Part shown: positions 7,236 to 39,591 of the stretch, piece after piece
Layout: each line of letters starts with the position of its first letter
Numbering within the stretch: the stretch's first letter is position 1
Origin: a virus
UHGV virus genome: UHGV-0158128
Length of the DNA: 42,844 nucleotides
Direction: 5' to 3' (one strand)
Notes under the pieces: generated by a model
Database searches by the model: none
Told to the model about the DNA's origin: nothing
What the model saw: only the letters and a program-made list of their open reading frames with translations
Made by a program: the position numbers and the translations under genes

Positions 7236-7856
7236 ATGGAAGAAAATAAACTTAAGTTTAATTTGCAATTTTTTGCAGACCAATCAGATGATCCGGACGA
7301 ACCAGGCGGAGATGGTAAAAAAGGAAATCCTGATAAGAAAGAAAATGACGAAGGTACTGAAATAACTTTCACGCCAGAGCAACAAAAGAAAGTTGATGAA
7401 ATACTTGAACGTCGTGTAGCCCACGAAAAGAAAAAAGCTGATGAGTATGCAAAAGAAAAAGCAGCAGAAGCTGCTAAAGAAGCTGCTAAATTAGCGAAAA
7501 TGAACAAGGATCAAAAAGATGAATATGAACGCGAACAAATGGAAAAAGAACTGGAACAATTACGTTCAGAAAAACAATTAAACGAAATGCGTTCAGAAGC
7601 ACGAAAAATGTTGAGTGAAGCGGAAGTTGATTCATCAGATGAGGTTGTCAATTTAGTTGTAACAGATACTGCTGAACAAACTAAATTGAATGTTGAAGCT
7701 TTTTCTAATGCAGTAAAAAAAGCGGTTAATGAAGCGGTTAAGGTTAACGCTAGACAATCGCCATTGACTGGTGGAGATTCATTTAATCACTCGACTAAAA
7801 ATAAACCGCAAAACTTAGCTGAAATAGCTAGACAAAAAAGAATTATTAAAAATTAA
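7236..7856 (+). CDS. Scaffolding protein
   Basis: 206 aa from ATG 7236 (GGAGG RBS). N-terminal KLKFNLQFFAD processing motif shared with the capsid protein. Highly charged coiled-coil. Confidence 0.8.
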   Translation: MEENKLKFNLQFFADQSDDPDEPGGDGKKGNPDKKENDEGTEITFTPEQQKKVDEILERRVAHEKKKADEYAKEKAAEAAKEAAKLAKMNKDQKDEYEREQMEKELEQLRSEKQLNEMRSEARKMLSEAEVDSSDEVVNLVVTDTAEQTKLNVEAFSNAVKKAVNEAVKVNARQSPLTGGDSFNHSTKNKPQNLAEIARQKRIIKN

Positions 7857-10553: not shown

Positions 10554-11135
10554 ATGGCGAATATGAAAAATAGTAATGACCGTATTATTTTGTTTAGAAA
10601 AGCTGGCGAAAAAGTAGATGCTACTAAAATGCTTTTTTTAACTGAATACGGCTTATCACATGAAGCTGATACAGATACAGAGGATACGATGGATGGGTCT
10701 TATAACACTGGTGGTTCAGTTGAATCAACAATGTCTGGTACTGCTAAAATGTTTTATGGTGACGATTTTGCAGATGAAATTGAAGATGCAGTTGTAGATC
10801 GCGTATTGTATGAGGCTTGGGAAGTTGAAAGTAGAATACCAGGCAAAAATGGAGATGCTACTAAATTTAAAGCGAAATATTTCCAAGGTTTCCACAATAA
10901 ATTTGAATTAAAAGCAGAAGCTAACGGTATTGATGAATATGAATATGAATATGGAGTGAATGGTCGTTTCCAACGTGGATTTGCAACACTACCTGAGGCT
11001 GTAACAAAGAAACTTAAGGCGACTGGATACAGATTCCATGACACTACAAAAGCAGATGCGTTAACTGGCGAAGATTTAACAGCAATTCCACAACCTAAGG
11101 TAGATTCATCAACGGTTACACCAGGAGAGGTATAA
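10554..11135 (+). CDS. Major tail protein
   Basis: 193 aa. RBS ACGGAGGAA. Followed by a strong terminator/attenuator. Confidence 0.7.
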   Translation: MANMKNSNDRIILFRKAGEKVDATKMLFLTEYGLSHEADTDTEDTMDGSYNTGGSVESTMSGTAKMFYGDDFADEIEDAVVDRVLYEAWEVESRIPGKNGDATKFKAKYFQGFHNKFELKAEANGIDEYEYEYGVNGRFQRGFATLPEAVTKKLKATGYRFHDTTKADALTGEDLTAIPQPKVDSSTVTPGEV

Positions 11136-11952: not shown

Positions 11953-14900
11953 GTGACGGAATATAAAATTAAAGCGACTATTGAAGCTAGTGTAGCCAAA
12001 TTCAAAAGGCAAATCGATAGTGCGGTTAAGTCTGTGCAAAGATTTAAACGAGTAGCAGATCAAACTAAAGATGTCGAATTAAATGCTGATGATAAAAAAT
12101 TACAAAAAACTATCAAAGTTGCTAAAAAGTCTTTAGATGCCTTTAGTAACAAAAAAGTAAAAGCTAAATTAGATGCTAGTATACAAGACTTGCAACAAAA
12201 GGTACTAGAATCGAATTTTGAACTAGACAAACTAAACTCTAAAGAAGTTACTCCAGAGATTAAATTACAAAAACAAAAATTGACTAAAGATATCGCTGAA
12301 GCAGAAGCTAAGTTATCCGAACTAGAAAAGAAGCGTGTCAATATTGACATCAATGCAGATAACAGTAAATTCAATCGAGTGTTAAAAGTATCTAAAGCTA
12401 GTCTTGAAGCATTAAATAGGTCTAAAGCCAAAGCTATTATAGACGTGGACAACGGTGTTGCTAACTCTAAAATCAAACGCACTAAAGAAGAGCTTAAAAG
12501 TATTCCAAACAAAACTAGATCTCGACTAGATGTAGATACAGGGCTTTCTATACCAACTATTTATGCGTTTAAAAAATCATTAGACGCATTGCCGAACAAA
12601 AAAACAACAAAGGTAGATGTCGATACTAATGGTTTAAAGAAAGCTTATGCCTACATAATAAAAGCAAATGACAATTTTCAAAGACAGATGGGGAATTTAG
12701 CTAATATGTTCCGTGTGTTCGGTACTGTAGGTTCTAATATGGTTGGTGGATTACTTACATCATCTTTTAGTATCTTAATACCTGTAATAGCGAGCGTAGT
12801 ACCTGTAGTATTTGCGCTATTAAACGCTATCAAAGTGTTAACTGGTGGTGTACTTGCTTTAGGTGGTGCCGTAGCAATAGCGGGAGCAGGATTTGTAGCG
12901 TTTGGCGCAATGGCTATCAGCGCTATAAAGATGCTTAATGATGGCACTTTACAAGCTAGCTCAGCAACAAACGAATACAAAAAAGCGTTAGATGGCGTAA
13001 AGTCAGCATGGACTGATATTATAAAGCAAAATCAATCCGCTATCTTCACAACTCTTGCAAATGGTTTAAATACTGTTAAAACTGCAATGCAGAGCTTACA
13101 ACCGTTTTTTAGTGGTATTTCAAGAGGAATGGAAGAAGCGTCTCAAAGCGTGCTTAAATGGGCTGAAAATAGCAGTGTAGCTTCAAGATTCTTTAATATG
13201 ATGAATACAACGGGTGTTTCGGTATTTAACAAGCTATTAAGTGCTGCAGGTGATTTTGGTGACGGATTAGTCAATGTATTCACGCAATTAGCACCACTGT
13301 TTCAATGGTCGGCTGATTGGTTGGATAGATTAGGTCAATCTTTCTCTAACTGGGCTAATAGTGCAGCTGGAGAAAATTCGATAACTCGTTTTATTGAATA
13401 CACAAAAACAAACTTACCTATCATTGGTAATATTTTCAAAAATGTTTTCGTTGGAATTAACAATTTGATGAATGCATTCAGCGGATCATCAACTGGCATA
13501 TTCCAATCTCTTGAACAAATGACAGCTAAGTTTAGGGAATGGTCTGAACAAGTAGGACAATCTCAAGGGTTTAAAGACTTTGTCAGTTATATACAAACAA
13601 ATGGACCACTAATAATGCAATTGATTGGAAACATCGCAAGAGGATTAGTTGCATTCGCAACAGCAATGGCTCCTATAGCTAGTGCAGTATTACGCGTTGC
13701 AGTTGCAATAACTGGTTGGATAGCTAACTTGTTTGAGGCGCATCCAGCTACAGCACAATTAGTTGGTGTCATTATAACTTTAGTTGGTGCATTTAGATTT
13801 TTAATACCGATTATTCTTGCTGTATCTAACTTTATGGGTGGCGGATTAATAGGTAGAATCATTGCATTAGTAAGTAAGTTCGGTTTATTAAGAGCGGGAT
13901 TAACAATTTTAAAAGGTGCGTTCATGTTATTAAAAGGACCATTAAAAATTATATCAGTTATATTCCAATTGTTATTCGGTAAGATTGGATTAATTAGAAA
14001 TGCTATCACAGGACTAGTAACTGTGTTTGGTATTTTAGGTGGTCCAATAACAATAGTAATTGGTGTAATCGCTGCATTAATAGCTATATTTGTTTTATTG
14101 TGGAATAAAAATGAAGGATTCAGAAACTTTATTATAAATGCTTGGAATGCGATAAAAACATTTATGGTTACAGTTTGGAATGTGTTGAAAACTGTAGCTT
14201 CGGTTGTATGGAATGCTATTTTAAAAGCTATCACTACAGCAGTATCAAATGTATACAATTTTATAATGATTATTTGGAATCAAATAGTTGCTTATTTGCA
14301 AGGGCTATGGAATGGAATTATCGCTATTGCAACAACAGTATGGAACCTTTTAGTTACAATCATCACAACTGTTTTCACGACGATAATGACAATAGTTATG
14401 ACGATATGGACAGCTATTTGGACATTCTTAAGTACAATCTGGAACACGATAATTACAATCGCTACTACGATTTGGAATTTGTTAGTCACTGTAATAACTA
14501 CAGTATTTACCACAATTATGACTATCGCAATGACAATTTGGAACGCTATTTGGACGTTCTTACAAACGTTGTGGAACACTATAGTTACTGTGGCAACTAA
14601 GGTTTGGAACGCTATCACTACAACTATATCTACTGCGTTACAAGCGGCATGGAGTTTTATTTCTAATATATGGAATACGATTTGGAGTTTCTTATCTGGT
14701 ATATTAACGACAATTTGGAATAAAGTTGTAAGCATATTCACACAAGTTGTATCAACTATATCAGACAAAATGTCTCAAGCTTGGAACTTCATTGTCACTA
14801 AAGGTATGCAATGGGTATCTACTATAACAAGTACGCTAATTAACTTTGTTAATAGAGTTGTTCAAGGATTCGTTAATGTTGTAAACAAAGTTAGTCAAGG

Positions 14901-18304: not shown

Positions 18305-20215
18305 ATGGATAACAAATTAATTACAGACTTAAGTAGAGTCTTTGACTACAGATATGTAGATGAAAATGAGTATAACTTTAAACTTATTTCAGACATGCTG
18401 ACGGATTTTAATTTCTCTCTTGAATACCATAGAAATAAAGAGGTATTTGCACATAATGGAGAGCAAATAAAGTATGAGCATTTAAATGTCACAAGTAGCG
18501 TCTCTGATTTTTTAACGTATCTAAACGGCCGTTTCAGCAATATGGTACTAGGTCATAACGGCGACGGTATCAACGAAGTAAAAGACGCGCGTGTTGATAA
18601 TACTGGTTATGATCATAAGACATTGCAAGATCGTTTGTATCATGATTATTCAACACTAGATACTTTCACTAAAAAGGTTGAGAAAGCTGTAGATGAACAC
18701 TATAAAGAATATCAAGCGACAGAATACCGATTTGAACCAAAAGAGCAAGAACCGGAATTCATCACAGATTTATCGCCATATACTAACGCAGTAATGCAAT
18801 CATTTTGGATAGACCCTAGAACGAAAATTATTTATATGACACAAGCGCGTCCGGGCAATCATTACATGTTATCTAGATTGAAGCCTAATGGACAATTTAT
18901 TGATAGATTGCTTGTTAAAAACGGCGGTCACGGTACACACAATGCGTATAGATACATTGATGGAGAATTATGGATTTATTCAGCTGTATTGGACAGTAAC
19001 AAAAACAACAAGTTTGTACGTTTCCAATATAGAACTGGAGAAATAACTTATGGTAATGAAATGCAAGACGTCATGCCGAATATATTTAACGACAGATATA
19101 CGTCAGCGATTTATAATCCTATAGAAAATTTAATGATTTTCAGACGTGAATATAAAGCTTCTGAAAGACAAGCTAAGAATTCATTGAATTTCATTGAAGT
19201 AAGAAGTGCTGACGATATTGATAAAGGTATAGACAAAGTATTGTATCAAATGGATATACCTATGGAATACACTTCAGATACACAACCTATGCAAGGTATC
19301 ACTTATGATGCAGGTATCTTATATTGGTATACAGGTGATTCGAATACAGCCAACCCTAATTACTTACAAGGCTTCGATGTCAAAACAAAAGAGTTATTAT
19401 TTAAACGTCGTATCGATATAGGCGGTGTGAATAACAACTTTAAAGGAGATTTCCAAGAGGCTGAGGGTCTAGATATGTATTACGATCTAGAAACAGGACG
19501 TAAAGCACTTTTAATTGGGGTAACTATTGGACCAGGTAACAACAGACATCACTCAATTTATTCTATCGGTCAAAGAGGTGTAAACCAATTCTTAAAAAAC
19601 ATTGCACCTCAAGTATCAATGACTGATTCAGGCGGACGTGTTAAACCGTTACCGATACAGAACCCAGCATATCTAAGTGATATTACGGAAGTTGGTCATT
19701 ACTATATCTATACGCAAGACACACAAAATGCGTTAGATTTCCCGTTACCGAAAGCGTTTAGAGATGCAGGTTGGTTCTTTGATGTACTGCCTGGTCATTA
19801 TAATGGTGCGTTAAGACAAGTACTAACTAGAAACAGCACAGGTAGAAATATGCTCAAATTTGAACGTGTTATCGACATCTTTAACAAGAAAAACAACGGT
19901 TCATGGAATTTTAACCCACAAAGTGCTGGTTATTGGGAACATATCCCTAAGAGCATCACGAAATTGTCTGATTTAAAAATTGTTGGTTTAGACTTCTATA
20001 TCACCACTGAAGAATCAAAACGTTTTTCTGACTTCCCTAAAGATTACAAAGGTATTGCAGGCTGGGTGTTAGAAGTAAAATCAAATACACCGGGTAACAC
20101 AACACAAGTGCTAAGACGTAATAACTTTGCTTCTGCTCACCAGTTTTTCGTTAGAAACTTTGGTACTGGTGGTAATAGTGGTTGGAGCATAATAGAAGGT
20201 AAGGAGGTTGAATAA
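18305..20215 (+). CDS. Receptor-binding protein (phi11 Gp45-like baseplate RBP)
   Basis: 636 aa, matching the size of phi11 RBP, in syntenic position after Tal. Confidence 0.6.
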   Translation: MDNKLITDLSRVFDYRYVDENEYNFKLISDMLTDFNFSLEYHRNKEVFAHNGEQIKYEHLNVTSSVSDFLTYLNGRFSNMVLGHNGDGINEVKDARVDNTGYDHKTLQDRLYHDYSTLDTFTKKVEKAVDEHYKEYQATEYRFEPKEQEPEFITDLSPYTNAVMQSFWIDPRTKIIYMTQARPGNHYMLSRLKPNGQFIDRLLVKNGGHGTHNAYRYIDGELWIYSAVLDSNKNNKFVRFQYRTGEITYGNEMQDVMPNIFNDRYTSAIYNPIENLMIFRREYKASERQAKNSLNFIEVRSADDIDKGIDKVLYQMDIPMEYTSDTQPMQGITYDAGILYWYTGDSNTANPNYLQGFDVKTKELLFKRRIDIGGVNNNFKGDFQEAEGLDMYYDLETGRKALLIGVTIGPGNNRHHSIYSIGQRGVNQFLKNIAPQVSMTDSGGRVKPLPIQNPAYLSDITEVGHYYIYTQDTQNALDFPLPKAFRDAGWFFDVLPGHYNGALRQVLTRNSTGRNMLKFERVIDIFNKKNNGSWNFNPQSAGYWEHIPKSITKLSDLKIVGLDFYITTEESKRFSDFPKDYKGIAGWVLEVKSNTPGNTTQVLRRNNFASAHQFFVRNFGTGGNSGWSIIEGKEVE

Positions 20216-22038
20216 TGGTAGTAGATAATTTTTCAAAAGATGATAACTTAATCGAGTTAAAAACAACATCACAATATAATCCAGTTATTGACACAAACAT
20301 CAGTTTCTATGAATCAGATAGAGGAACTGGTGTTTTAAATTTTGCAGTAACTAAGAATAACAGACCGTTATCTATAAGTTCTGAACATGTTAAAACTTCC
20401 ATCGTGTTAAAAACCGATGATTATAACGTAGATAGAGGCGCTTATATTTCAGACGAATTAACGGTAGTAGACGCAATTAATGGGCGCTTGCAATATGTGA
20501 TTCCAAATGAATTTTTAAAACATTCAGGTAAGGTACATGCTCAGGCATTCTTCACGCAACACGGGAGTAACAACGTAGTTGTTGAACGTCAATTTAGTTT
20601 CAATATTGAAAATGATTTAGTCAGTGGGTTTGATGGCATAACAAAGCTTGTTTATATCAAATCTATTCAAGATACTATCGAAGCTGTCGGTAAAGACTTT
20701 AACCAATTAAAGCAAAATATGGCTGATACACAAACGTTAATAGCAAAAGTGAATGATAGTGCGACAAAAGGCATTCAACAAATCGAAATCAAGCAAAACG
20801 AAGCTATACAAGCTATTACTGCGACTCAAACTAGTGCAACACAAGCTGTTACAGCTGAATTCAATAAAATAGTTGAAAAGGAGCAAACGATATTTGCGCG
20901 TGTCAATGAAGTTGAGCAACAAATCAATGGTGCTGACCTTGTCAAAGGCAACTCGACAGTCAATTGGCAAAAGTCTAAGATTACTGATGATTATGGCAAA
21001 GCGATTGAATCGTCTGAGCAGTCCATAGATAGCGTTTTAAGCACAGTTAACACATCTAGGATTATTCATATTACTAACGCAACAGATGCGCCAGAAAAGA
21101 CGGATATAGGCACGTTAGAGAAGCCTGGACAAGATGGTGTTGATGACGGTTCTTCGTTCGATGAATCAACTTATACATCAAGCAAATCTGGTGTGTTAGT
21201 TGTTTATGTTGTTGATAATAATACTGCTCGTGCAACATGGTACCCAGATGATTCAAACGATGAGTACACAAAATACAAAATCTACGGCACGTGGTACCCG
21301 TTTTATAAAAAGAATGATGGAAACTTAACTAAGCAATTTGTTGAAGAAATATCTAACAACGCTTTAAATCAAGCTAAACAGTATGTAGATGGTAAGTTTC
21401 AAAGTACAAGTTGGCAACAACATAAATTAACAGAACATAACGGTCAATCAATCCAAAAGAACTTATATAACGCCAAAGGTAATTTAGAAGCATTGGGCGC
21501 TGGGAATTATTACGTAACAAGTGTACCTGATTTACCAGGTATTGTTGAAAGTTACGAAGGCTACTTATCAGTATTTGTTAAAGATGATGCAAATAAGTTA
21601 TTCAACTTCACACCTTCAAACTCTAAAAAAGTTTATACACGATCAATCACCAATGGTCGATTAGATTCACAATGGGCTGCACCTAACGAACATAAAACAG
21701 CCGTGTTATTCGACGGTGCTGCAAACGGTGTAGGAACAAGGATTAATTTAACCGAAGCTTATACAAATTATGCAATTCTATTCATAAGCGGTACTTATCC
21801 AGGTGGTGTTATTGAAGCATTCAGTTTAACCTCTATACCAAATGCGATTCAATTAAGTAAAACAAATGTAGTTGACTCAGACGGTAACGGTGGTGGTAGT
21901 TATGAATGCTTAATAACTAAAGAAAGTGGTACGACGTTAAAAATCGATAACGATGTGTACCTTGATTTAGGCAGTAAAACAGGTTCTGGTGCTAATGCAA
22001 ACAGAGTTACGATAAATAAAATTGTGGGGTGGAAATAA
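20215..22038 (+). CDS. Baseplate/tail fibre protein (FibL-like)
   Basis: 607 aa. ATG overlaps the upstream stop. Gly-rich C-terminus. Confidence 0.55.
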   Translation: MVVDNFSKDDNLIELKTTSQYNPVIDTNISFYESDRGTGVLNFAVTKNNRPLSISSEHVKTSIVLKTDDYNVDRGAYISDELTVVDAINGRLQYVIPNEFLKHSGKVHAQAFFTQHGSNNVVVERQFSFNIENDLVSGFDGITKLVYIKSIQDTIEAVGKDFNQLKQNMADTQTLIAKVNDSATKGIQQIEIKQNEAIQAITATQTSATQAVTAEFNKIVEKEQTIFARVNEVEQQINGADLVKGNSTVNWQKSKITDDYGKAIESSEQSIDSVLSTVNTSRIIHITNATDAPEKTDIGTLEKPGQDGVDDGSSFDESTYTSSKSGVLVVYVVDNNTARATWYPDDSNDEYTKYKIYGTWYPFYKKNDGNLTKQFVEEISNNALNQAKQYVDGKFQSTSWQQHKLTEHNGQSIQKNLYNAKGNLEALGAGNYYVTSVPDLPGIVESYEGYLSVFVKDDANKLFNFTPSNSKKVYTRSITNGRLDSQWAAPNEHKTAVLFDGAANGVGTRINLTEAYTNYAILFISGTYPGGVIEAFSLTSIPNAIQLSKTNVVDSDGNGGGSYECLITKESGTTLKIDNDVYLDLGSKTGSGANANRVTINKIVGWK

Positions 22039-27046: not shown

Positions 27047-28472
27047 AAAAGAGTTTATAGAGTGGTTGAAAACATCTGAGGGAAAACAATATAATGCGGA
27101 CGGATGGTATGGATTTCAATGCTTTGACTATGCCAATGCAGGTTGGCAAGTCTTATTTGGCTACAACTTAAAAGGTGTAGGTGCCAAAGACATCCCAAGT
27201 GCTAATGATTTTAACGGACTAGCTACTGTATACCAAAATACACCAGACTTCTTAGCGCAACCTGGCGACATGGTTGTATTCGGTAGTAATTATGGTGCAG
27301 GATACGGTCATGTTGCATGGGTAATTGAAGCAACTTTAGATTATATCATTGTATATGAGCAGAATTGGCTCGGCGGTGGCTGGACAGACGGTGTACAACA
27401 ACCTGGCTCTGGTTGGGAAAAAGTTACAAGACGCCAACACGCTTACGACTTCCCTATGTGGTTTATCCGTCCTAACTTCAAAAGCGAAACAGCTCCACGA
27501 TCAGTACAATCTCCTACGCAAGCATCTAAAAAGGAAACGGCTAAGCCACAACCTAAAGCGGTAGAACTTAAAATCATCAAAGATGTGGTTAAAGGTTATG
27601 ACCTACCTAAGCGTGGTAGTAACCCTAAGTTTATAGTTATTCACAACGACGCAGGAAGCAAAGGAGCAACAGCAGAAGCATATCGTAATGGATTAGTTAA
27701 CGCGCCATTATCGAGACTAGAGGCAGGTATTGCGCATAGTTACGTATCAGGTAACACAGTTTGGCAAGCCTTAGATGAATCTCAAGTAGGTTGGCATACA
27801 GCGAATCAAATAGGTAATAAATATGGTTACGGTATTGAAGTGTGTCAATCAATGGGAGCAGATAATGCGACGTTTTTAAAAAATGAACAGGCGACTTTCC
27901 AAGAATGTGCTAGATTGTTGAAAAAATGGGGATTACCAGCAAACCGTAACACAATCCGATTACACAACGAATTCACTTCAACATCATGCCCACACAGAAG
28001 CTCAGTATTGCACACTGGTTTTGATCCAGTAACTCGCGGTCTATTGCCAGAAGACAAGCGGTTGCAACTTAAAGACTACTTTATCAAGCAGATTAGGGCG
28101 TACATGGATGGTAAAATACCGGTTGCCACTGTCTCTAATGAGTCAAGCGCTTCAAGTAATACAGTTAAACCAGTTGCAAGTGCATGGAAACGTAATAAAT
28201 ATGGTACTTACTACATGGAAGAAAGTGCTAGATTCACAAACGGCAATCAACCAATCACAGTAAGAAAAGTGGGGCCATTCTTATCTTGTCCAGTGGGTTA
28301 TCAGTTCCAACCTGGTGGATATTGTGATTATACAGAAGTGATGTTACAAGATGGTCATGTTTGGGTAGGATATACATGGGAGGGGCAACGTTATTACTTG
28401 CCTATTAGAACATGGAATGGTTCTGCCCCACCTAATCAGATATTGGGTGACTTATGGGGAGAAATCAGTTAG
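27027..28472 (+). CDS. lytA: Endolysin (CHAP + amidase_2 + SH3b)
   Basis: 481 aa from ATG 27027, the size of phi11 LytA. CHAP Cys/His, [10 protein letters not shown] amidase motif and an SH3b-like C-terminus. Confidence 0.9.
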
Positions 28473-29803: not shown

Positions 29804-30850
29804 TTAATCAAATATGCTCATAGCTTGATGTTTTTTATCAGTATATAAATGAGAGTACGTTTGAATTGTTTCTGTAATGTTAGAGTGCCTCATTAATTCC
29901 ATTAATAAATACATATCTACACCATTATTAATTAAATAGCTTGCGTACGAGTGTCTTAAATGGTGTATTTTTAGATTCGGGAATACAGATTTAAAATGAT
30001 ACGAATAGGTAACGTATCTAATAGGTTCTAACCCCCCGAATATAAAATAGTTTTCGTCAAAATATTTATATCTTTTAGAAGATTCATTATACATGTTTTT
30101 AAGCATCTCTCTAATTAATTTTGGTACAGGTATTATCCCTTTAGAACTTTCTTTTTTTAGATTATATTCAATTTCTCTATTACTTAAATTGATTTTCTTA
30201 TTTACGTCAATTTCGCCTTTTATTTTATCGTAATCTTTCCACTGCAAAGCTAAAGCTTCTCCTATTCTAAGACCAGAATAAAATAACAGTCTAGTTAGCT
30301 GACGAGAAGTATCATTTGTGATTTGTTCTACTTTTTCATCAAATTCTTCACGAGTGATAAATTTAGCTTGTGGTTTTGTTCTGGGAATAGGAGTTACCGA
30401 TAATGTGGGGTCGTATAAGAGCTTGTAATGCTTTTTGGCGTAATTGATAACTGCTTTAAAACCTGCCCACACAGATCGTGCATAGTCAACAGAAAGACCT
30501 GCATCGTTTAACAAATAATTCCTGAAAGCAGTACATTGCGTAGTAGTGATTTTGCCAATAGGGATATTTCCGAACCTTTCTTTTATGTGAGTATTATATT
30601 CTGTAGTTCGCTTTTCTATTGAGCGTGCAGAAAGATTTTCATTTTTTAAACGATCAAAAAATATATATTCAAAGGGTTGATTGTCCGAGTATCCATATTT
30701 AACATTTTGTATAAATTCGCTTTCAGCTAGTTTGGCATCTTTCTTACGTTCAAACCCACGCTTCATTTTTCGTTTGTTATTACCGTATACATCTTTATAT
30801 CTAATGGAAAAATACCATTTACCTGTATTATCATCCTTATATACTGGCAT
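29804..30850 (-). CDS. int: Tyrosine integrase (phi11/80alpha type)
   Basis: 348 aa. Catalytic R...HxxR...Y motifs (HHLRHSYAS, TYSHLY). RBS GAGGAGGG. Confidence 0.9.
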   Translation of the reverse strand: MPVYKDDNTGKWYFSIRYKDVYGNNKRKMKRGFERKKDAKLAESEFIQNVKYGYSDNQPFEYIFFDRLKNENLSARSIEKRTTEYNTHIKERFGNIPIGKITTTQCTAFRNYLLNDAGLSVDYARSVWAGFKAVINYAKKHYKLLYDPTLSVTPIPRTKPQAKFITREEFDEKVEQITNDTSRQLTRLLFYSGLRIGEALALQWKDYDKIKGEIDVNKKINLSNREIEYNLKKESSKGIIPVPKLIREMLKNMYNESSKRYKYFDENYFIFGGLEPIRYVTYSYHFKSVFPNLKIHHLRHSYASYLINNGVDMYLLMELMRHSNITETIQTYSHLYTDKKHQAMSIFD

Positions 30851-30911
30851 TTTGCTTTTCCCTCCTCAAAATTGGCAAAAAATAATAAGGGTAGGCGGGC
30901 TACCCGTGATT

Positions 30912-30940
30912 TTAGTACTAGGTACTAAATGTGATATAAT
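30912..30940 (+). promoter_or_regulatory. xis promoter with operator palindrome TTAGTAC-TAG-GTACTAA and extended -10 TGaTATAAT
   Basis: Palindrome at 30912-30928 overlaps the -35 position. -10 at 30935-30940. Confidence 0.45.
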
Positions 30941-30962
30941 AAAATAAAAAGTAGGTGATGAA

Positions 30963-31142
30963 ATGTGTGTAAAATTTACTGACGCAGAAATAGCTTATAT
31001 AAAAGAATCAGTTGAAAATTATAGTAGTGAATTTGATATTTATGACGATGAACAAGAACTTAAATTAAAAATTTATGAACAAATTATGTTAAAAATCAAA
31101 TCTGAATACAAGGATACCTATTTATTCCGTCTTATTAATTGA
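30963..31142 (+). CDS. xis: Excisionase-like small protein, divergent from int
   Basis: 59 aa acidic ORF, read manually (below track cutoff). RBS GTAGGTGATG. Position divergent from int as in phi11. The Xis identity rests on synteny and memory only. Confidence 0.45.
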   Translation: MCVKFTDAEIAYIKESVENYSSEFDIYDDEQELKLKIYEQIMLKIKSEYKDTYLFRLIN

Positions 31143-32054
31143 TTTGGTATATTCTCTTAATATTTTTTCGTTTTCATCAACAATGTCTTTTAGTGTGTTT
31201 AAAAGAAAGTCACAATCACCTTTGGCTACTGCACCAGCTTGTGAATGGTTGATTATGTTTCTCATACTATACGCAATTTCTACCCGTTTTTTGGTTCTAT
31301 AATTTACTTTACCTTCTTTAGTTAATTCTCCTAATAATTTTGTGTACATAGTTGAATCGGTGTCTTTATGTTTGATTTTATTAACTTTTTTTAATTTGAT
31401 TAAAAACGTTTCTATAGCAACAGCAAAGGTTGCTGCAGCTGGCAAATACAATTCCCTTTTATAAGCTTGTAATCCTTGTTCTATTTGATAAGAAAAAGTT
31501 ATATCATCAACAATCTCTTTCATACTATTTAAATCTAAGTGGTTGAACGGTTGTATTTCATCATGTGCTTTGTTTATCAATCTTTCTTTCGACTTCGATA
31601 TCAATGTATTGTAATGATCGTTAGCTAATCTTTTGCCATAATTAAAAAATAAATCTAAATTGTTTTGTAATATTACGGTCCCGATATATTTTCCGTAGTA
31701 AATAGATGTGTAATAAATGTAATTATTAAAATCTAATAATCCGGATTGTTCTTCTACATACTTTTTAGAATCATATATGTATGAAGTAAAGTGTTTAGAC
31801 AAATATTTGATATCAATATTACGAAAATTATATATTTCTTTTAATTTACTGTCATTTGAGATAACGACGATGCAAGGTTCTTCAAAAAAAGATTGATTTA
31901 GATAAAATATCGAAATCTTGTAATCGTCTTTTCTCATGAATGGGAAAGCTTCTGGATTGCTACTAAACTGATAATTGTATCTGTTTTCAACTACATATTT
32001 GTAGCCTTCTAAAAATTTACGCAAGTATTCTTTTAAAGTTTTATTCTCTTCCAT
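31122..32054 (-). CDS. Accessory (moron) protein of unknown function on the cI strand; candidate superinfection-exclusion/defence gene
   Basis: 310 aa. Strong RBS GAGGAGGATGAGGG. Lies between xis and cI. No recognisable catalytic motif. Confidence 0.6.
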   Translation of the reverse strand: MEENKTLKEYLRKFLEGYKYVVENRYNYQFSSNPEAFPFMRKDDYKISIFYLNQSFFEEPCIVVISNDSKLKEIYNFRNIDIKYLSKHFTSYIYDSKKYVEEQSGLLDFNNYIYYTSIYYGKYIGTVILQNNLDLFFNYGKRLANDHYNTLISKSKERLINKAHDEIQPFNHLDLNSMKEIVDDITFSYQIEQGLQAYKRELYLPAAATFAVAIETFLIKLKKVNKIKHKDTDSTMYTKLLGELTKEGKVNYRTKKRVEIAYSMRNIINHSQAGAVAKGDCDFLLNTLKDIVDENEKILREYTKSINKTE

Positions 32055-32193
32055 CCCTCATCCTCCTCACGCCATATAGGCGTTTATTTCTTATATTCTT
32101 CTTCAACATACTTTTTTACTAAATATTCAAGAATAAGTTCGGTCATTAGATCGTTTTCTTCGTACTCTTTATGAAGTTACTTTATTCTTTGAA

Positions 32194-32361
32194 TTAATTT
32201 AACTTATCGCCATCTAATTTTTGTGAAATAAATTCCAAGTATTTACGCGCATTATGTGACGATAAATCTTTAGGTAACTCATAAGTGAATGGTTGATTAC
32301 CACTAGTTAAAACTTCATATACTATAGTTTCTTTTTTTATTTTGCAATTAGTTATTTTCAT
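32194..32361 (-). CDS. Small protein (55 aa) between cI and the 310-aa gene
   Basis: AAAAGGAG RBS 6 nt upstream of ATG. MKITNCKIKKETIVYEVLTSGNQPFTYELPKDLSSHNARKYLEFISQKLDGDKLN. Read manually. Confidence 0.35.
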   Translation of the reverse strand: MKITNCKIKKETIVYEVLTSGNQPFTYELPKDLSSHNARKYLEFISQKLDGDKLN

Positions 32362-32430
32362 TATAAACTCCTTTTAAACACTGATGAAATAGACGTCTTT
32401 TATATTAAAGTGCCATATAGGCGCTATTAA

Positions 32431-33150
32431 TCACAATACAACTTTGCCCATTACTTTAATATTACTAAACGAAGCGACTTTGATATCATCATACTTCGGA
32501 TTTAGAGATACCAAATTAATATAGTCTTCGCATATATCTACACGCTTGATAAGACTTACTCCATCTAATACAACGAGTGCAATTGTACCATCTTTAATAG
32601 AATCTTCTTTCTTAATAAAAGCGTATGTTCCTTGTTTTAACATAGGTTCCATTGAATCACCATTAACTAAAATACAAAAATCAGCATTTGATGGCGTTTC
32701 GTCTTCTTTAAAAAATACTTCTTCATGCAATATGTCATCATATAATTCTTCTCCTATGCCAGCACCAGTTGCACCACATGCAATATACGATACTAGTTTA
32801 GACTCTTTATATTCATCTATAGAAGTGACTTTATTCTGTTCATCTAATTGCTCATTTGCGTAGTTAAGTACGTTTTTTTGTCTTGGAGGCGTGAGTTTAC
32901 TGTATATGGAAGTGATGTCGTTTTTTTTATTATTTCTTGTAGGAAACAAATCATCGATACTGATATTTAAAATATGAGCAATTTCAAACAAATCATCTTG
33001 TTTAGGAGTTCTGTACCCTGTCTCATAATTTGAAATAGTAGCCTTTTTAGTGTTGAGTTTTTCTCCAAGTTGATCTTGAGTTAAGTTCAATTTGGTTCTA
33101 TAGTATCTGATTTTATTGCCTATAAATTTCGCTAATTCTTTTTTATCCAT
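32431..33150 (-). CDS. cI: CI repressor (HTH_XRE + S24 LexA-like peptidase)
   Basis: 239 aa. N-terminal HTH (LTQDQLGEKLNTKKATISNYETG). C-terminal GDSMEP Ser and K of the S24 autocleavage dyad. Confidence 0.9.
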   Translation of the reverse strand: MDKKELAKFIGNKIRYYRTKLNLTQDQLGEKLNTKKATISNYETGYRTPKQDDLFEIAHILNISIDDLFPTRNNKKNDITSIYSKLTPPRQKNVLNYANEQLDEQNKVTSIDEYKESKLVSYIACGATGAGIGEELYDDILHEEVFFKEDETPSNADFCILVNGDSMEPMLKQGTYAFIKKEDSIKDGTIALVVLDGVSLIKRVDICEDYINLVSLNPKYDDIKVASFSNIKVMGKVVL

Positions 33151-33175
33151 TTTCTTACCTCCTTAAATTTACCTA

Positions 33176-33265
33176 TAGTATAACCCAATTATTTTTGGTA
33201 TTCAACAAAAAAATACACGAAAAGCAAACTTTTATGTTGACTCAAGTACACGTATCGTGTATAGT
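33176..33265. promoter_or_regulatory. Divergent cI/cro promoter-operator region
   Basis: Minus strand: TTGAAT-17-TATACT (PRM-like). Plus strand: TTGACT-17-TATAGT at 33237-33265 (PR-like). Operator palindrome TACACGTATCGTGTA at 33247-33261 and a TACACG half-site at 33213. Confidence 0.7.
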
Positions 33266-33291
33266 TAGTTTTGTAAGCGGGAGGTGACAAC

Positions 33292-33510
33292 ATGCAATGG
33301 AATTTAATAAAGTTGAGAAAAGAAAGAAAGTGTACTCAAGAAGATTTAGCAAACCTCTTGAATATATCAACTGAAGGTTATCGTTTAAAGGAATTAGGAA
33401 AGCATCAATTTAAGAATGATGAGATGTTTATTATCGCTGATTTTTTTGACGAAAATATTGGAGATATTTTTTTACCCACAAAGTACACGAAACGCAAACA
33501 AACATCTTAA
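33292..33510 (+). CDS. cro: Cro-like repressor
   Basis: 72 aa HTH protein divergent from cI. RBS GGGAGGTGA. Confidence 0.8.
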   Translation: MQWNLIKLRKERKCTQEDLANLLNISTEGYRLKELGKHQFKNDEMFIIADFFDENIGDIFLPTKYTKRKQTS

Positions 33511-38816: not shown

Positions 38817-39591
38817 AGTTGGCATGTTTGATGACAGCAAAATCAAATATATCGAAGCTTTACCCGAAAGAGATACGATCATAACCATTTGGGTTAAGTT
38901 GCTAACTTTATCAGGAAAGTACAACGAACAAGGTTACATTATGTTATCTGAAAACTTGCCGTATAACGAAGAAATGTTAGCAAATGAGTTTAGCCGACCT
39001 ATTAACTCAATAAGGTTAGCAATACAAACTTTTGAGACGTTGGGCATGATTGAAAAAGTTAATGGTGTCATAAAAGTGACAAACTGGGAAAAACACCAAA
39101 ACATTGAAGGACTCGAGAAAATCAGGGCTCAGAACAGGTTGAGGAAACAAAAGCAACGAGAAAACAACAGAAAATTGCTAAATGGTCACGTGACGTCACG
39201 TGACAGTCACGCAACAGAAGAAGATAAAGAATTAGATAAAGAATTAGAAAGAGATAAAGAAAAAGATATAGATAAGAACTTAAGTTCAAATAATAGCGCA
39301 ACTGACGTTACGCATGAGCAATTTGAGGAATGGTGGAAACTTTACAACAAGAAAAAAGATAAGAAGATGTCTTTCACTAAATTCAAATCATGCGTAAAGA
39401 AACATACTTTTGAGCAAATCATGCAAGGTACTCGAGAGTATTTAAAAACTATTACAGACAAACAATATCAAAAGTACCCTAAAACGTTTTTAACTAACGA
39501 AAGCTATATGAATGATTATAGCGAAGAGATTAAAGAAACTGGTATAGATCAATTGGAACGTATGAAGTACGACGAAAGTTATTGGGACTAG
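38788..39591 (+). CDS. Replisome organizer (phage_rep_org_N-type initiator)
   Basis: 267 aa. Conserved N-terminus WIKLKVGMFDDSKIKYIEALPE. RBS AAAGGAGAAG. Confidence 0.7.
   Translation: MGEVSWIKLKVGMFDDSKIKYIEALPERDTIITIWVKLLTLSGKYNEQGYIMLSENLPYNEEMLANEFSRPINSIRLAIQTFETLGMIEKVNGVIKVTNWEKHQNIEGLEKIRAQNRLRKQKQRENNRKLLNGHVTSRDSHATEEDKELDKELERDKEKDIDKNLSSNNSATDVTHEQFEEWWKLYNKKKDKKMSFTKFKSCVKKHTFEQIMQGTREYLKTITDKQYQKYPKTFLTNESYMNDYSEEIKETGIDQLERMKYDESYWD

Follow-up and report, generated by a model that had tools for sequence, protein, structure and literature searches.

The closest described relatives of the locus studied here are the tail-activated HEPN-domain defense systems of temperate Staphylococcus aureus phages (Rostøl, Quiles-Puchalt et al., Nat Microbiol 2024; PMC11087260). 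According to that work, Tha-2 of phage ΦNM2 gives protection against phages when cloned alone, and in lysogens (80α) the cI promoter drives the transcription of tha. The trigger is a minor tail protein of the incoming phage, homologs of φ11 ORF54 in the case of Tha-2. Activated Tha-1 degrades RNA non-specifically and arrests growth, and Tha-2 is reported with a similar HEPN domain. A small protein, Ith, expressed from a constitutive antisense promoter, neutralizes Tha at the induction of the prophage itself, and the "xis" of 80α and φ11 was shown not to be an excisionase (PMC11087260). Tha-2 protein has also been detected in ΦNM1 lysogens (proteomics preprint). We have analyzed a related locus in the virus genome UHGV-0158128, whose whole stretch of 42,844 nucleotides (nt) is called the window here, and within it specifically positions 30,963 to 32,430. 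An original prediction, made from the letters alone, had described there a two-gene accessory island of 310 and 55 amino acids (aa) on the strand of the cI repressor, with the same 12-nt motif before each gene. We conclude that the locus is very probably a lysogenic operon, driven from the cI promoter and assembled from exchangeable cassettes: Tha-2 with its inhibitor Ith-2, an independent 55-aa gene (p55), and junctions serving as recombination linkers. The identities, the HEPN fold, the gene order and the combinatorial junctions were computed by us. The Tha/Ith mechanism and the expression come from papers, and the linker role is our interpretation. What is said about the function of Tha, Ith and gp05 (the p55 homolog of 80α) derives from papers on 97-98% identical proteins of other phages.

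The window is of the phage 53-like S. aureus Dubowvirus type, the region 30850-33300 being 99.9% identical to phage 53 and vB_SauS_832. Both open reading frames (ORFs) were found again on the cI strand between the xis ORF and cI. The larger one (tha-2, 31122-32054, minus strand) codes for a protein that aligned with ΦNM2 Tha-2 over its full length and without gaps, with 300 of the 310 residues identical (97%) and R265 and H270 retained. The catalytic motif R265-N-I-I-N-H270 corresponds to the Rx4H motif of HEPN domains, and R265, N266 and H270 were invariant in 30 homologs from Staphylococcus, Mammaliicoccus and Macrococcoides. When the Tha-2 model was searched with Foldseek, the leading matches were almost all HEPN proteins, a fold that had been among those proposed for testing. 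Judged by this identity, the 310-aa gene is the already published anti-phage RNase Tha-2, and the Tha-2/Ith-2 defense system of the window is already known. Of the proposed undescribed defense module, the defense gene stood and the novelty did not, given its near-identity to the experimentally tested protein of ΦNM2. Nothing connected it to known structural or regulatory proteins, and the known module is a defense system.

Profile and defense databases were silent: scans of Pfam, PADLOC and NCBIfam gave nothing for either Tha-2 or p55. For Tha-2 the only family assignment was phrog_2039, matched over the full length (E=9e-160) and labelled function unknown. A profile built from the 30 homologs had no match among PDB sequences even at E<=10. 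In the models, the HEPN kinship of Tha-2 is detectable by fold only and not by sequence. Annotation pipelines overlook Tha-2 because the sequence profile retrieves nothing in PDB. The N-terminal domain (residues ~10-120), modelled with the 30-sequence alignment, was of α/β type with four strands and a predicted local distance difference test score (pLDDT) mostly >90; the N-terminus of Tha-1 had been modelled at pLDDT <50 (PMC11087260). This domain presumably senses the tail protein. Compared with other HEPN toxins and effectors (the HEPN-MNT toxin 5yep, LsoA/RnlA, Csm6), to which Pfam, PADLOC, NCBIfam and the PDB profile detected no sequence kinship, Tha-2 has its own confidently modelled N-terminal α/β domain of ~120 aa. 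Besides, it is regulated by a small protein encoded in antisense, whereas the comparators are regulated by MNT, Dmd or cyclic oligoadenylate.

The 3' end of tha-2 is overlapped by 21 nt, according to the coordinates, by the antisense gene ith-2 (30963-31142, plus strand), whose 59-aa product belongs to phrog_2033 and carries the old annotation of excisionase. The original prediction had likewise called it xis. The protein was 97% identical to Ith-2 of ΦNM2, and an antisense ith partner was found beside the tha homologs in loci of S. xylosus, S. epidermidis, Mammaliicoccus (sciuri) and Macrococcoides. The name xis has to be abandoned, as the gene is, on this identity, Ith-2, the predicted inhibitor of Tha-2 and its actual functional partner, a role taken from PMC11087260. 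Ith homologs are still called excisionase in PHROG 2033 and in Pfam PF26912 "Phage_L54a_excisionase" (precomputed matches, loci L237-L242), and the local Pfam-A copy gave no match for the 59-aa protein of the window. A candidate promoter of ith-2 is the extended -10 element TGATATAAT at 30932-30940 (plus strand), read by eye and suggested by analogy with Pith-1 of 80α; the consensus promoter scan made no call there.

Besides the two proteins at 97% identity and the R265/H270 motif, the window shares with ΦNM2 the site downstream of cI, the antisense overlap with ith and a Dubowvirus as host phage. The two differ by ten substitutions in Tha-2 and two in Ith-2, and by the integrase, which is of the tyrosine type in the window and a serine recombinase in ΦNM2. 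In ΦNM2, tha-2 comes directly after cI, whereas in the window a p55 cassette of 341 bp stands between them. With the Tha-1/Ith-1 systems of 80α and φ11 the window has in common the architecture, the class of mechanism, the 5' leader with identical start and first codons, and the upstream junction motif; both of those phages likewise carry p55 (gp05). The differences are greater here, with ~21% identity between Tha-1 and Tha-2, ORF61 instead of ORF54 as the trigger, and an inhibition by Ith that is specific to the cognate Tha (PMC11087260).

The window also contains a putative trigger of its own. The product of 20215-22035 (plus strand), found by tblastn as a homolog of φ11 ORF54 (lower tail fibre or minor tail protein), was 90% identical over 607/607 aa to a 607-aa ORF in an unannotated gap of NC_004615. 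Since the phage encodes this ORF54 homolog, it would need Ith-2. In the lysogen, the cI promoter would transcribe cI, p55 and tha-2, and Tha-2 would be present as a latent HEPN RNase. A superinfecting phage would then activate it through its minor tail protein (a homolog of φ11 ORF54), leading to non-specific RNA degradation and arrest of the cell. At induction the cI promoter would be off and the constitutive antisense promoter would supply Ith-2, which would block Tha-2 so that the phage's own ORF54 homolog does not cause self-killing.

The second component of the locus is the repeated motif. The window has two exact copies of the 12-mer GCCATATAGGCG, at 32071-32082 and 32412-32423, and allowing one mismatch revealed no third. 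As originally seen, the motif lies in the leader of each gene, 16 nt 5' of the ATG of the 310-aa gene and 50 nt 5' of that of the 55-aa gene, with a period of 341 nt. No other copy of the motif or of the leader associated with it (T-leader, see below) was found elsewhere in the phage. We scanned IMG/VR twice by motif and obtained at least 234 loci, at least 152 of them staphylococcal, the others being chance matches with GC-rich flanks. Comparison of these loci revealed a junction of ~35-50 nt. On the mRNA strand it starts with the stop codon of the upstream gene within TGATTAATAR, continues with CGCCTATRTGGC and ends in one of two leaders. The T-leader, GYGAGGAGGATGAGGGATGGAAGAG, comprises a Shine-Dalgarno (SD) site, the ATG and the first ~3 codons, and is common to at least seven otherwise unrelated families including tha-1 and tha-2. 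The A-leader, RCTTTAATATA…AAAGGAG, is used by p55 and others. In the window, junction 1 (32044-32082, minus strand, containing the first 12-mer) has the core CGCCTATATGGC and the T-leader GTGAGGAGGATGAGGGATGGAAGAG on the mRNA strand. Junction 2 (32400-32433, minus strand, with the second 12-mer) has the cI stop in TGATTAATAG, the same core and the A-leader ACTTTAATATAA.

What varies is the genes on both sides. After dereplication, at least 31 distinct combinations of left and right flanks were found around the invariant core. The upstream partners were two types of repressor, p55, an orf4-like gene, a bPH/SHOCT protein and others. Downstream we found Tha-2, Tha-1, a PemK-like protein, a TarS/TarP-like glycosyltransferase, Abi_2, DUF3644 with a restriction endonuclease-like protein, and a DpnII methyltransferase-endonuclease fusion. 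The suggestion that the interval between int and cI is a hotspot for accessory and defense genes expressed in the lysogen was borne out. The idea of a shared element or insertion scar came near the truth, the motif being non-random, but a motif specific to two genes it is not, as the junction precedes at least 14 different gene families. In ΦNM2 and ΦNM1 the repressor stop is separated from the tha-2 leader by a single copy, and exactly the 341-bp segment between the two window copies is absent from them. φ11 and 80α have three copies, in the order cI | p55 | orf4-like | tha-1. The megablast matches of many phages ended at window positions ~32080-32088, that is, at the first 12-mer. Junction-bearing loci adjoin at least four integrase types, unrelated to each other and including a serine recombinase.

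We think it rather probable that the junction, taken by itself, is a short patch of homology for the exchange of cassettes. This reading is based on one core standing amid many combinations of unrelated modules, on the p55 indel being bounded by direct copies, and on the presence of a stop and, in the T-type, a translation start inside the patch. Phage recombination at the patch would swap, insert, delete or stack cassettes. Since the patch includes the stop codon as well as the SD site and start codon, any gene arriving there would enter the operon already equipped for translation. Recombination of this kind would have brought the 341-bp p55 cassette, flanked by the two copies of the window, into this phage or removed it from ΦNM2. 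The motif was absent upstream of tha homologs at 50-60% identity in other species, and absent from 185,579 species-representative genomes except for one S. rostri prophage. A linker that spread within one gene pool therefore fits better than a deeply conserved RNA. In S. rostri DSM 21968 (L244:4470-4520) a variant of the junction, TGATTAACAG…, joins a bPH_3/SHOCT protein to the PemK-like gene. The flanking genes were near-identical to the versions of S. aureus phages, and this similarity suggests a recent flow of phage modules between species.

A stronger version of this can be proposed tentatively, and we would put it below even chances. In temperate phages of S. aureus the junction would serve as a dedicated "plug-in" linker. 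It would combine the TGATTAATAR stop with the GC-clamp hairpin CGCCTATRTGGC and, for one class, also with an SD site, ATG and three codons, and through it cassettes would be inserted, stacked, deleted and exchanged in the cI operon with inherited expression signals. The hairpin may additionally insulate the cassettes from antisense transcription. If the plug-in linker is true, there would be a recombinase-independent, integron-like shuffling of prophage defense and conversion genes (Tha-1, Tha-2, PemK-like, TarP-like, Abi_2, restriction-modification). Two other identities of the core were considered and discarded. As an integron attC-like site it is too small, the core having only 12-15 nt with a stem of 4-5 bp, and with at least four unrelated integrase types as neighbors there is no cognate recombinase. 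It is not a promoter either, as by eye 8/12 positions agree with the consensus in the A-type and none in the T-type.

Several points weigh against our reading of the locus. The census loci were seeded by the motif itself, and the frequencies hold among motif-bearing loci and not for all S. aureus lysogeny modules. IMG/VR is also redundant for S. aureus, with many near-identical prophages. The flank combinations prove exchange at the junction and not the reason for its conservation; a functional RNA or DNA element would likewise be conserved and become a crossover point. For the defense gene, the specificity of the window Tha-2 could differ from that of ΦNM2 at the ten substituted residues. The identification of the 607-aa ORF of NC_004615 as φ11 ORF54 is deduced from its position, its length and the reported ΔT248-G396 deletion. 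Finally, the element can fold into a hairpin. At site 1, on the plus strand, a 5-bp GC stem is followed by TTTATTTCTT and was called by a loose terminator scan. The hairpins beat shuffled sequences at most junctions, with z values of -2.5 to -5 at several. The fold energy was -7 kcal/mol for the T-type; in the A-type, bulged stems of 11 bp reached -13 kcal/mol.

These hairpins are the foundation of the alternative that survives best, namely that the junction hairpin is primarily a functional element of transcription or RNA and its use for crossover is secondary. It is compatible with the linker model, and we regard it as possible but doubtful. Such an element could be a weak, possibly bidirectional terminator or insulator against antisense read-in from Pith to p55 and cI, an operon attenuator, or a stem-loop for RNase processing or 5' stabilization. 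The 5-bp stem noticed originally does fold: at site 1 the stem ACGCC/GGCGT has -7.2 kcal/mol on the plus strand, with the same stem on the mRNA strand, and site 2 forms a bulged hairpin. The distant tha loci that lack the motif (L238, L240) have ordinary terminator-like hairpins at the equivalent position, read from the sequence, and in 80α lysogens the expression in reads per kilobase per million (RPKM) drops ~2-fold from gp05 to gp04 (PMC6107660). However, the stems are very short, and at the outer pair G-C, A-T, G·T and A·C all occur, each about as often as the others. The wobble pairs favor neither strand consistently and the middle copy of φ11/80α has an internal G·A mismatch. On the mRNA strand, site 2 of the window and the ΦNM2-type junction were no better than shuffles (z -0.9 and 0.0). 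The U-tract is missing at most junctions, and site 2 was not called on either strand by the terminator scan. In 80α, tha is transcribed from the cI promoter through the junctions (PMC11087260), and expression is equal for cI and gp05 and for gp04 and gp03, i.e. across two of the three junctions (PMC6107660). Besides, conservation of the motif stops at the S. aureus phage pool.

Other observations on the hairpin and on expression can be added. We looked for covariation and discarded it as an argument, because the variants of the outer pair are equally explained by recombined left and right halves and there was no strand-specific signal. An Rfam scan of 30700-33400 at E<=1 gave a spurious snoRNA match only. 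In the text of PMC11087260 no 3' ends of transcripts are listed. In 80α (L243) the RPKM values are ~500-600k for cI and gp05 and ~300k for gp04 and gp03 (PMC6107660). The ~2-fold step-down coincides with the degenerate middle junction GCCGTATAGGAG together with the p55 tail, and not with the other two junctions.

The gene between the two junctions, p55 (32194-32361, minus strand, 55 aa), was 98% identical to gp05 of 80α and belongs to phrog_1176, likewise labelled function unknown. Homologs were found in S. aureus only, all annotated as "hypothetical". Its AlphaFold2 model has three β-strands and a C-terminal helix (pLDDT 77). Against PDB this model had no significant match (best E=0.5), and the resemblances to small β proteins of the SH3, Sso7d and CsrA types were weak and not interpretable. 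Among the loci listed, p55 was directly upstream of tha-2 in 10/31 tha-2 loci and 10/70 p55 loci, and its downstream neighbors besides tha-2 belonged to at least 13 other gene families. ΦNM2 and ΦNM1 have tha-2 without p55. In locus L084 the order is cI, junction, tha-2/ith-2, junction, p55, junction and a TarP-like gene. With tha-2 upstream of p55 there, cassettes can therefore be permuted and stacked. We conclude that p55 is a separate cassette and not a partner of Tha-2, and the two-gene island of the original prediction dissolves into independent cassettes.

The possibility remains to be weighed that p55 itself is an undescribed, Tha-independent factor of the lysogen, acting in superinfection exclusion, defense or modulation of the host. 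We consider this improbable, although several data speak for it. Expression of gp05 and cI exceeds that of all other prophage genes in 80α lysogens, according to Fernández et al. 2018 (PMC6107660). A Δgp05 mutant releases phage normally on induction, so that the gene is dispensable for it, and the production of staphyloxanthin is lowered in Δgp04 and Δgp05 (PMC6107660). The gene occupies a slot that otherwise holds defense and conversion genes, appears to be under purifying selection, with few and conservative substitutions, and has a small fold predicted with confidence. On the other hand, neither homology nor fold connects p55 to any known family, and its sequences vary too little to support an evolutionary test. 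The loss of pigment is also found in Δgp04 and in a cI point mutant, and may be polar or indirect (PMC6107660).

Much less probable still is that p55 and the 310-aa gene form one two-gene defense or exclusion module, with p55 for example as a sensor, antitoxin or regulator of the HEPN protein, both co-regulated through the motif. The two genes are indeed adjacent and co-oriented in the window, with strong ribosome-binding sites and the motif before each. But ΦNM2 has no p55, and its cloned Tha-2 is protective by itself; the partner known for Tha-2 is Ith-2. Their adjacency is restricted to the minority of loci counted above, p55 precedes many other families, the order in L084 is reversed, and the motif stands before many unrelated genes. 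The distribution largely refutes such a module.

As for the statistics of the 12-mer, a chance of ~1% had been given originally for its repetition. This estimate is invalid for a repeat chosen post hoc, because such repeats are commonplace in both the window and the null. The window contains ~13 distinct 12-mers repeated within 400 nt, and under a first-order Markov null the mean was 3.5, with at least one in 91% of the null sequences. For this particular GC-rich 12-mer in a 34% GC genome the expectation is ~8e-6 per 400 nt, and its expected count in the window was 0.04 against two observed. Other exact repeats of 12-15 nt within 400 nt were seen at 7466-7479, 10616-10854, 14227-14709, 27814-28194 and 39222-39237. 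The tandem repeats of 12-nt period at 7466 and 39222 and the cluster at 14227-14709 are in coding regions. The 12-mer is non-random because it is conserved at gene junctions in at least 152 related loci, and with the same core present in up to three copies per phage, a chance repeat has practically no probability left, common as local repeats are in the window and in the null.

The gene order of the locus is in agreement with a single transcript. In the sense of transcription, the order on the minus strand is the cI-like repressor, p55, the 111-bp tail of its cassette and tha-2, and the scan called no terminator-like hairpin until after tha/ith. By analogy with 80α, we infer that cI, p55 and tha-2 form one operon from the cI promoter in the lysogen. 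The repressor heading it (32431-33150, minus strand) has HTH_3 and Peptidase_S24 domains and is also annotated as cI-like in φ11 and ΦNM2. Upstream of it, a promoter-like TTGAAT-17-TATACT at 33177-33205 (minus strand), a match to the consensus only, is the candidate lysogenic promoter for cI-p55-tha-2. A terminator-like bidirectional hairpin, GGGTAGGCGGGCTACCC, lies between ith-2 and int at 30889-30905. It was called by the terminator scan on both strands, with T-runs on either side, is probably the 3' end of the cI-p55-tha-2 transcript ahead of int, and would also block transcription coming from the side of int. The tyrosine integrase is at 29804-30850 (minus strand). The strong ribosome-binding sites and the AT-richness noted originally were both seen again: the SD sites read from the sequence, GAGGAGGA and AAAGGAG, are strong, and tha-2 has 27.5% GC against 34.4% for the window, within the lowest 1.1% of windows of equal size.

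The end of the p55 cassette has some peculiarities. Its non-coding tail (32083-32193, minus strand, 111 bp) is unannotated in all phage records and was nearly invariant in 40 loci. It contains a stop-to-stop frame of 30 codons (…MTELILEYLVKKYVEEEYKK; LHKEYEENDLMTELILEYLVKKYVEEEYKK), whose ATG would give a 20-aa peptide. The frame looks like the remnant of a gene, and tblastn with it found identical unannotated copies only and no longer parent gene. The scan marked a terminator-like hairpin on the plus strand of the tail at 32140-32153. The p55 protein has two alternative C-termini, …DGDKLN* and …DGDKLTKEDSL* (3' end 32194-32215), each tracking a different downstream DNA. This correlation places a second mosaic breakpoint within the last codons of p55.

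Among the other occupants of the slot, the commonest (46 junctions among those listed) was a protein of 226 aa in which Pfam recognized a PemK/MazF-like toxin domain (E=2e-9); an ORF of 57 aa comes next. The 226-aa protein has the T-leader and the N-terminus "MEEN" (loci e.g. L134, L086, L006, L244:4512-5192), and is a candidate defense or toxin gene expressed in lysogeny. In other loci (L131, L183, L139, L176; cluster c31) a 329-aa GT2 glycosyltransferase with a TarS linker domain came directly behind the junction. This protein resembles TarP, the wall-teichoic-acid glycosyltransferase encoded by prophages. If this resemblance holds, the junction may bear on the movement of a clinically important gene between phages.

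The first consequence of these results is a correction of the annotation. The "hypothetical protein" beside cI in phage 53-like prophages is, by identity, Tha-2, and the adjacent "excisionase" is Ith-2. PADLOC v2, Pfam-A and NCBIfam are blind to Tha-2, and automated surveys of defense in S. aureus will therefore miss it. The junction may matter more, since it marks the borders of interchangeable defense and lysogenic-conversion cassettes in the S. aureus cI operon. It could be used as a sequence handle for mining prophages for uncharacterized cargo expressed in lysogeny, such as the PemK-like 226-aa protein, and for tracing clinically relevant cargo (the TarP-like glycosyltransferase gene) between phages. 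In the searchable literature, the motif string retrieved unrelated primer sequences only, and no account of the hotspot or of the junction in S. aureus lysogeny modules was found. The conserved junction is the only element here for which no description was found in that literature, a modest but potentially useful addition.

How the junction relates to known systems can be seen in two comparisons. The idea of the modular evolution of phages reportedly comes from Susskind and Botstein. Short conserved junctions were noted in lambdoid phages, and phage recombinases carry out relaxed homologous recombination. Conserved boundary or linker sequences between phage modules are touched upon in PMC2327257. 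With such linkers the S. aureus junction shares a short conserved sequence at gene boundaries, unrelated modules in varied combinations and duplicates flanking an indel. It differs from them by carrying the stop of the upstream gene and, in one leader class, the SD site, ATG and ~3 codons, and by its confinement to one slot of one operon. The second comparison is with the defense hotspots of P2 prophages and P4 satellites (Rousset et al. 2022, as cited in PMC11087260). These hotspots have in common with the cI operon a fixed site, alternative defense genes and conserved flanks. They belong to another group of phages and another host, and their flanks are conserved core genes, whereas in S. aureus the flank is an intergenic patch of ~35-50 nt that can be repeated.

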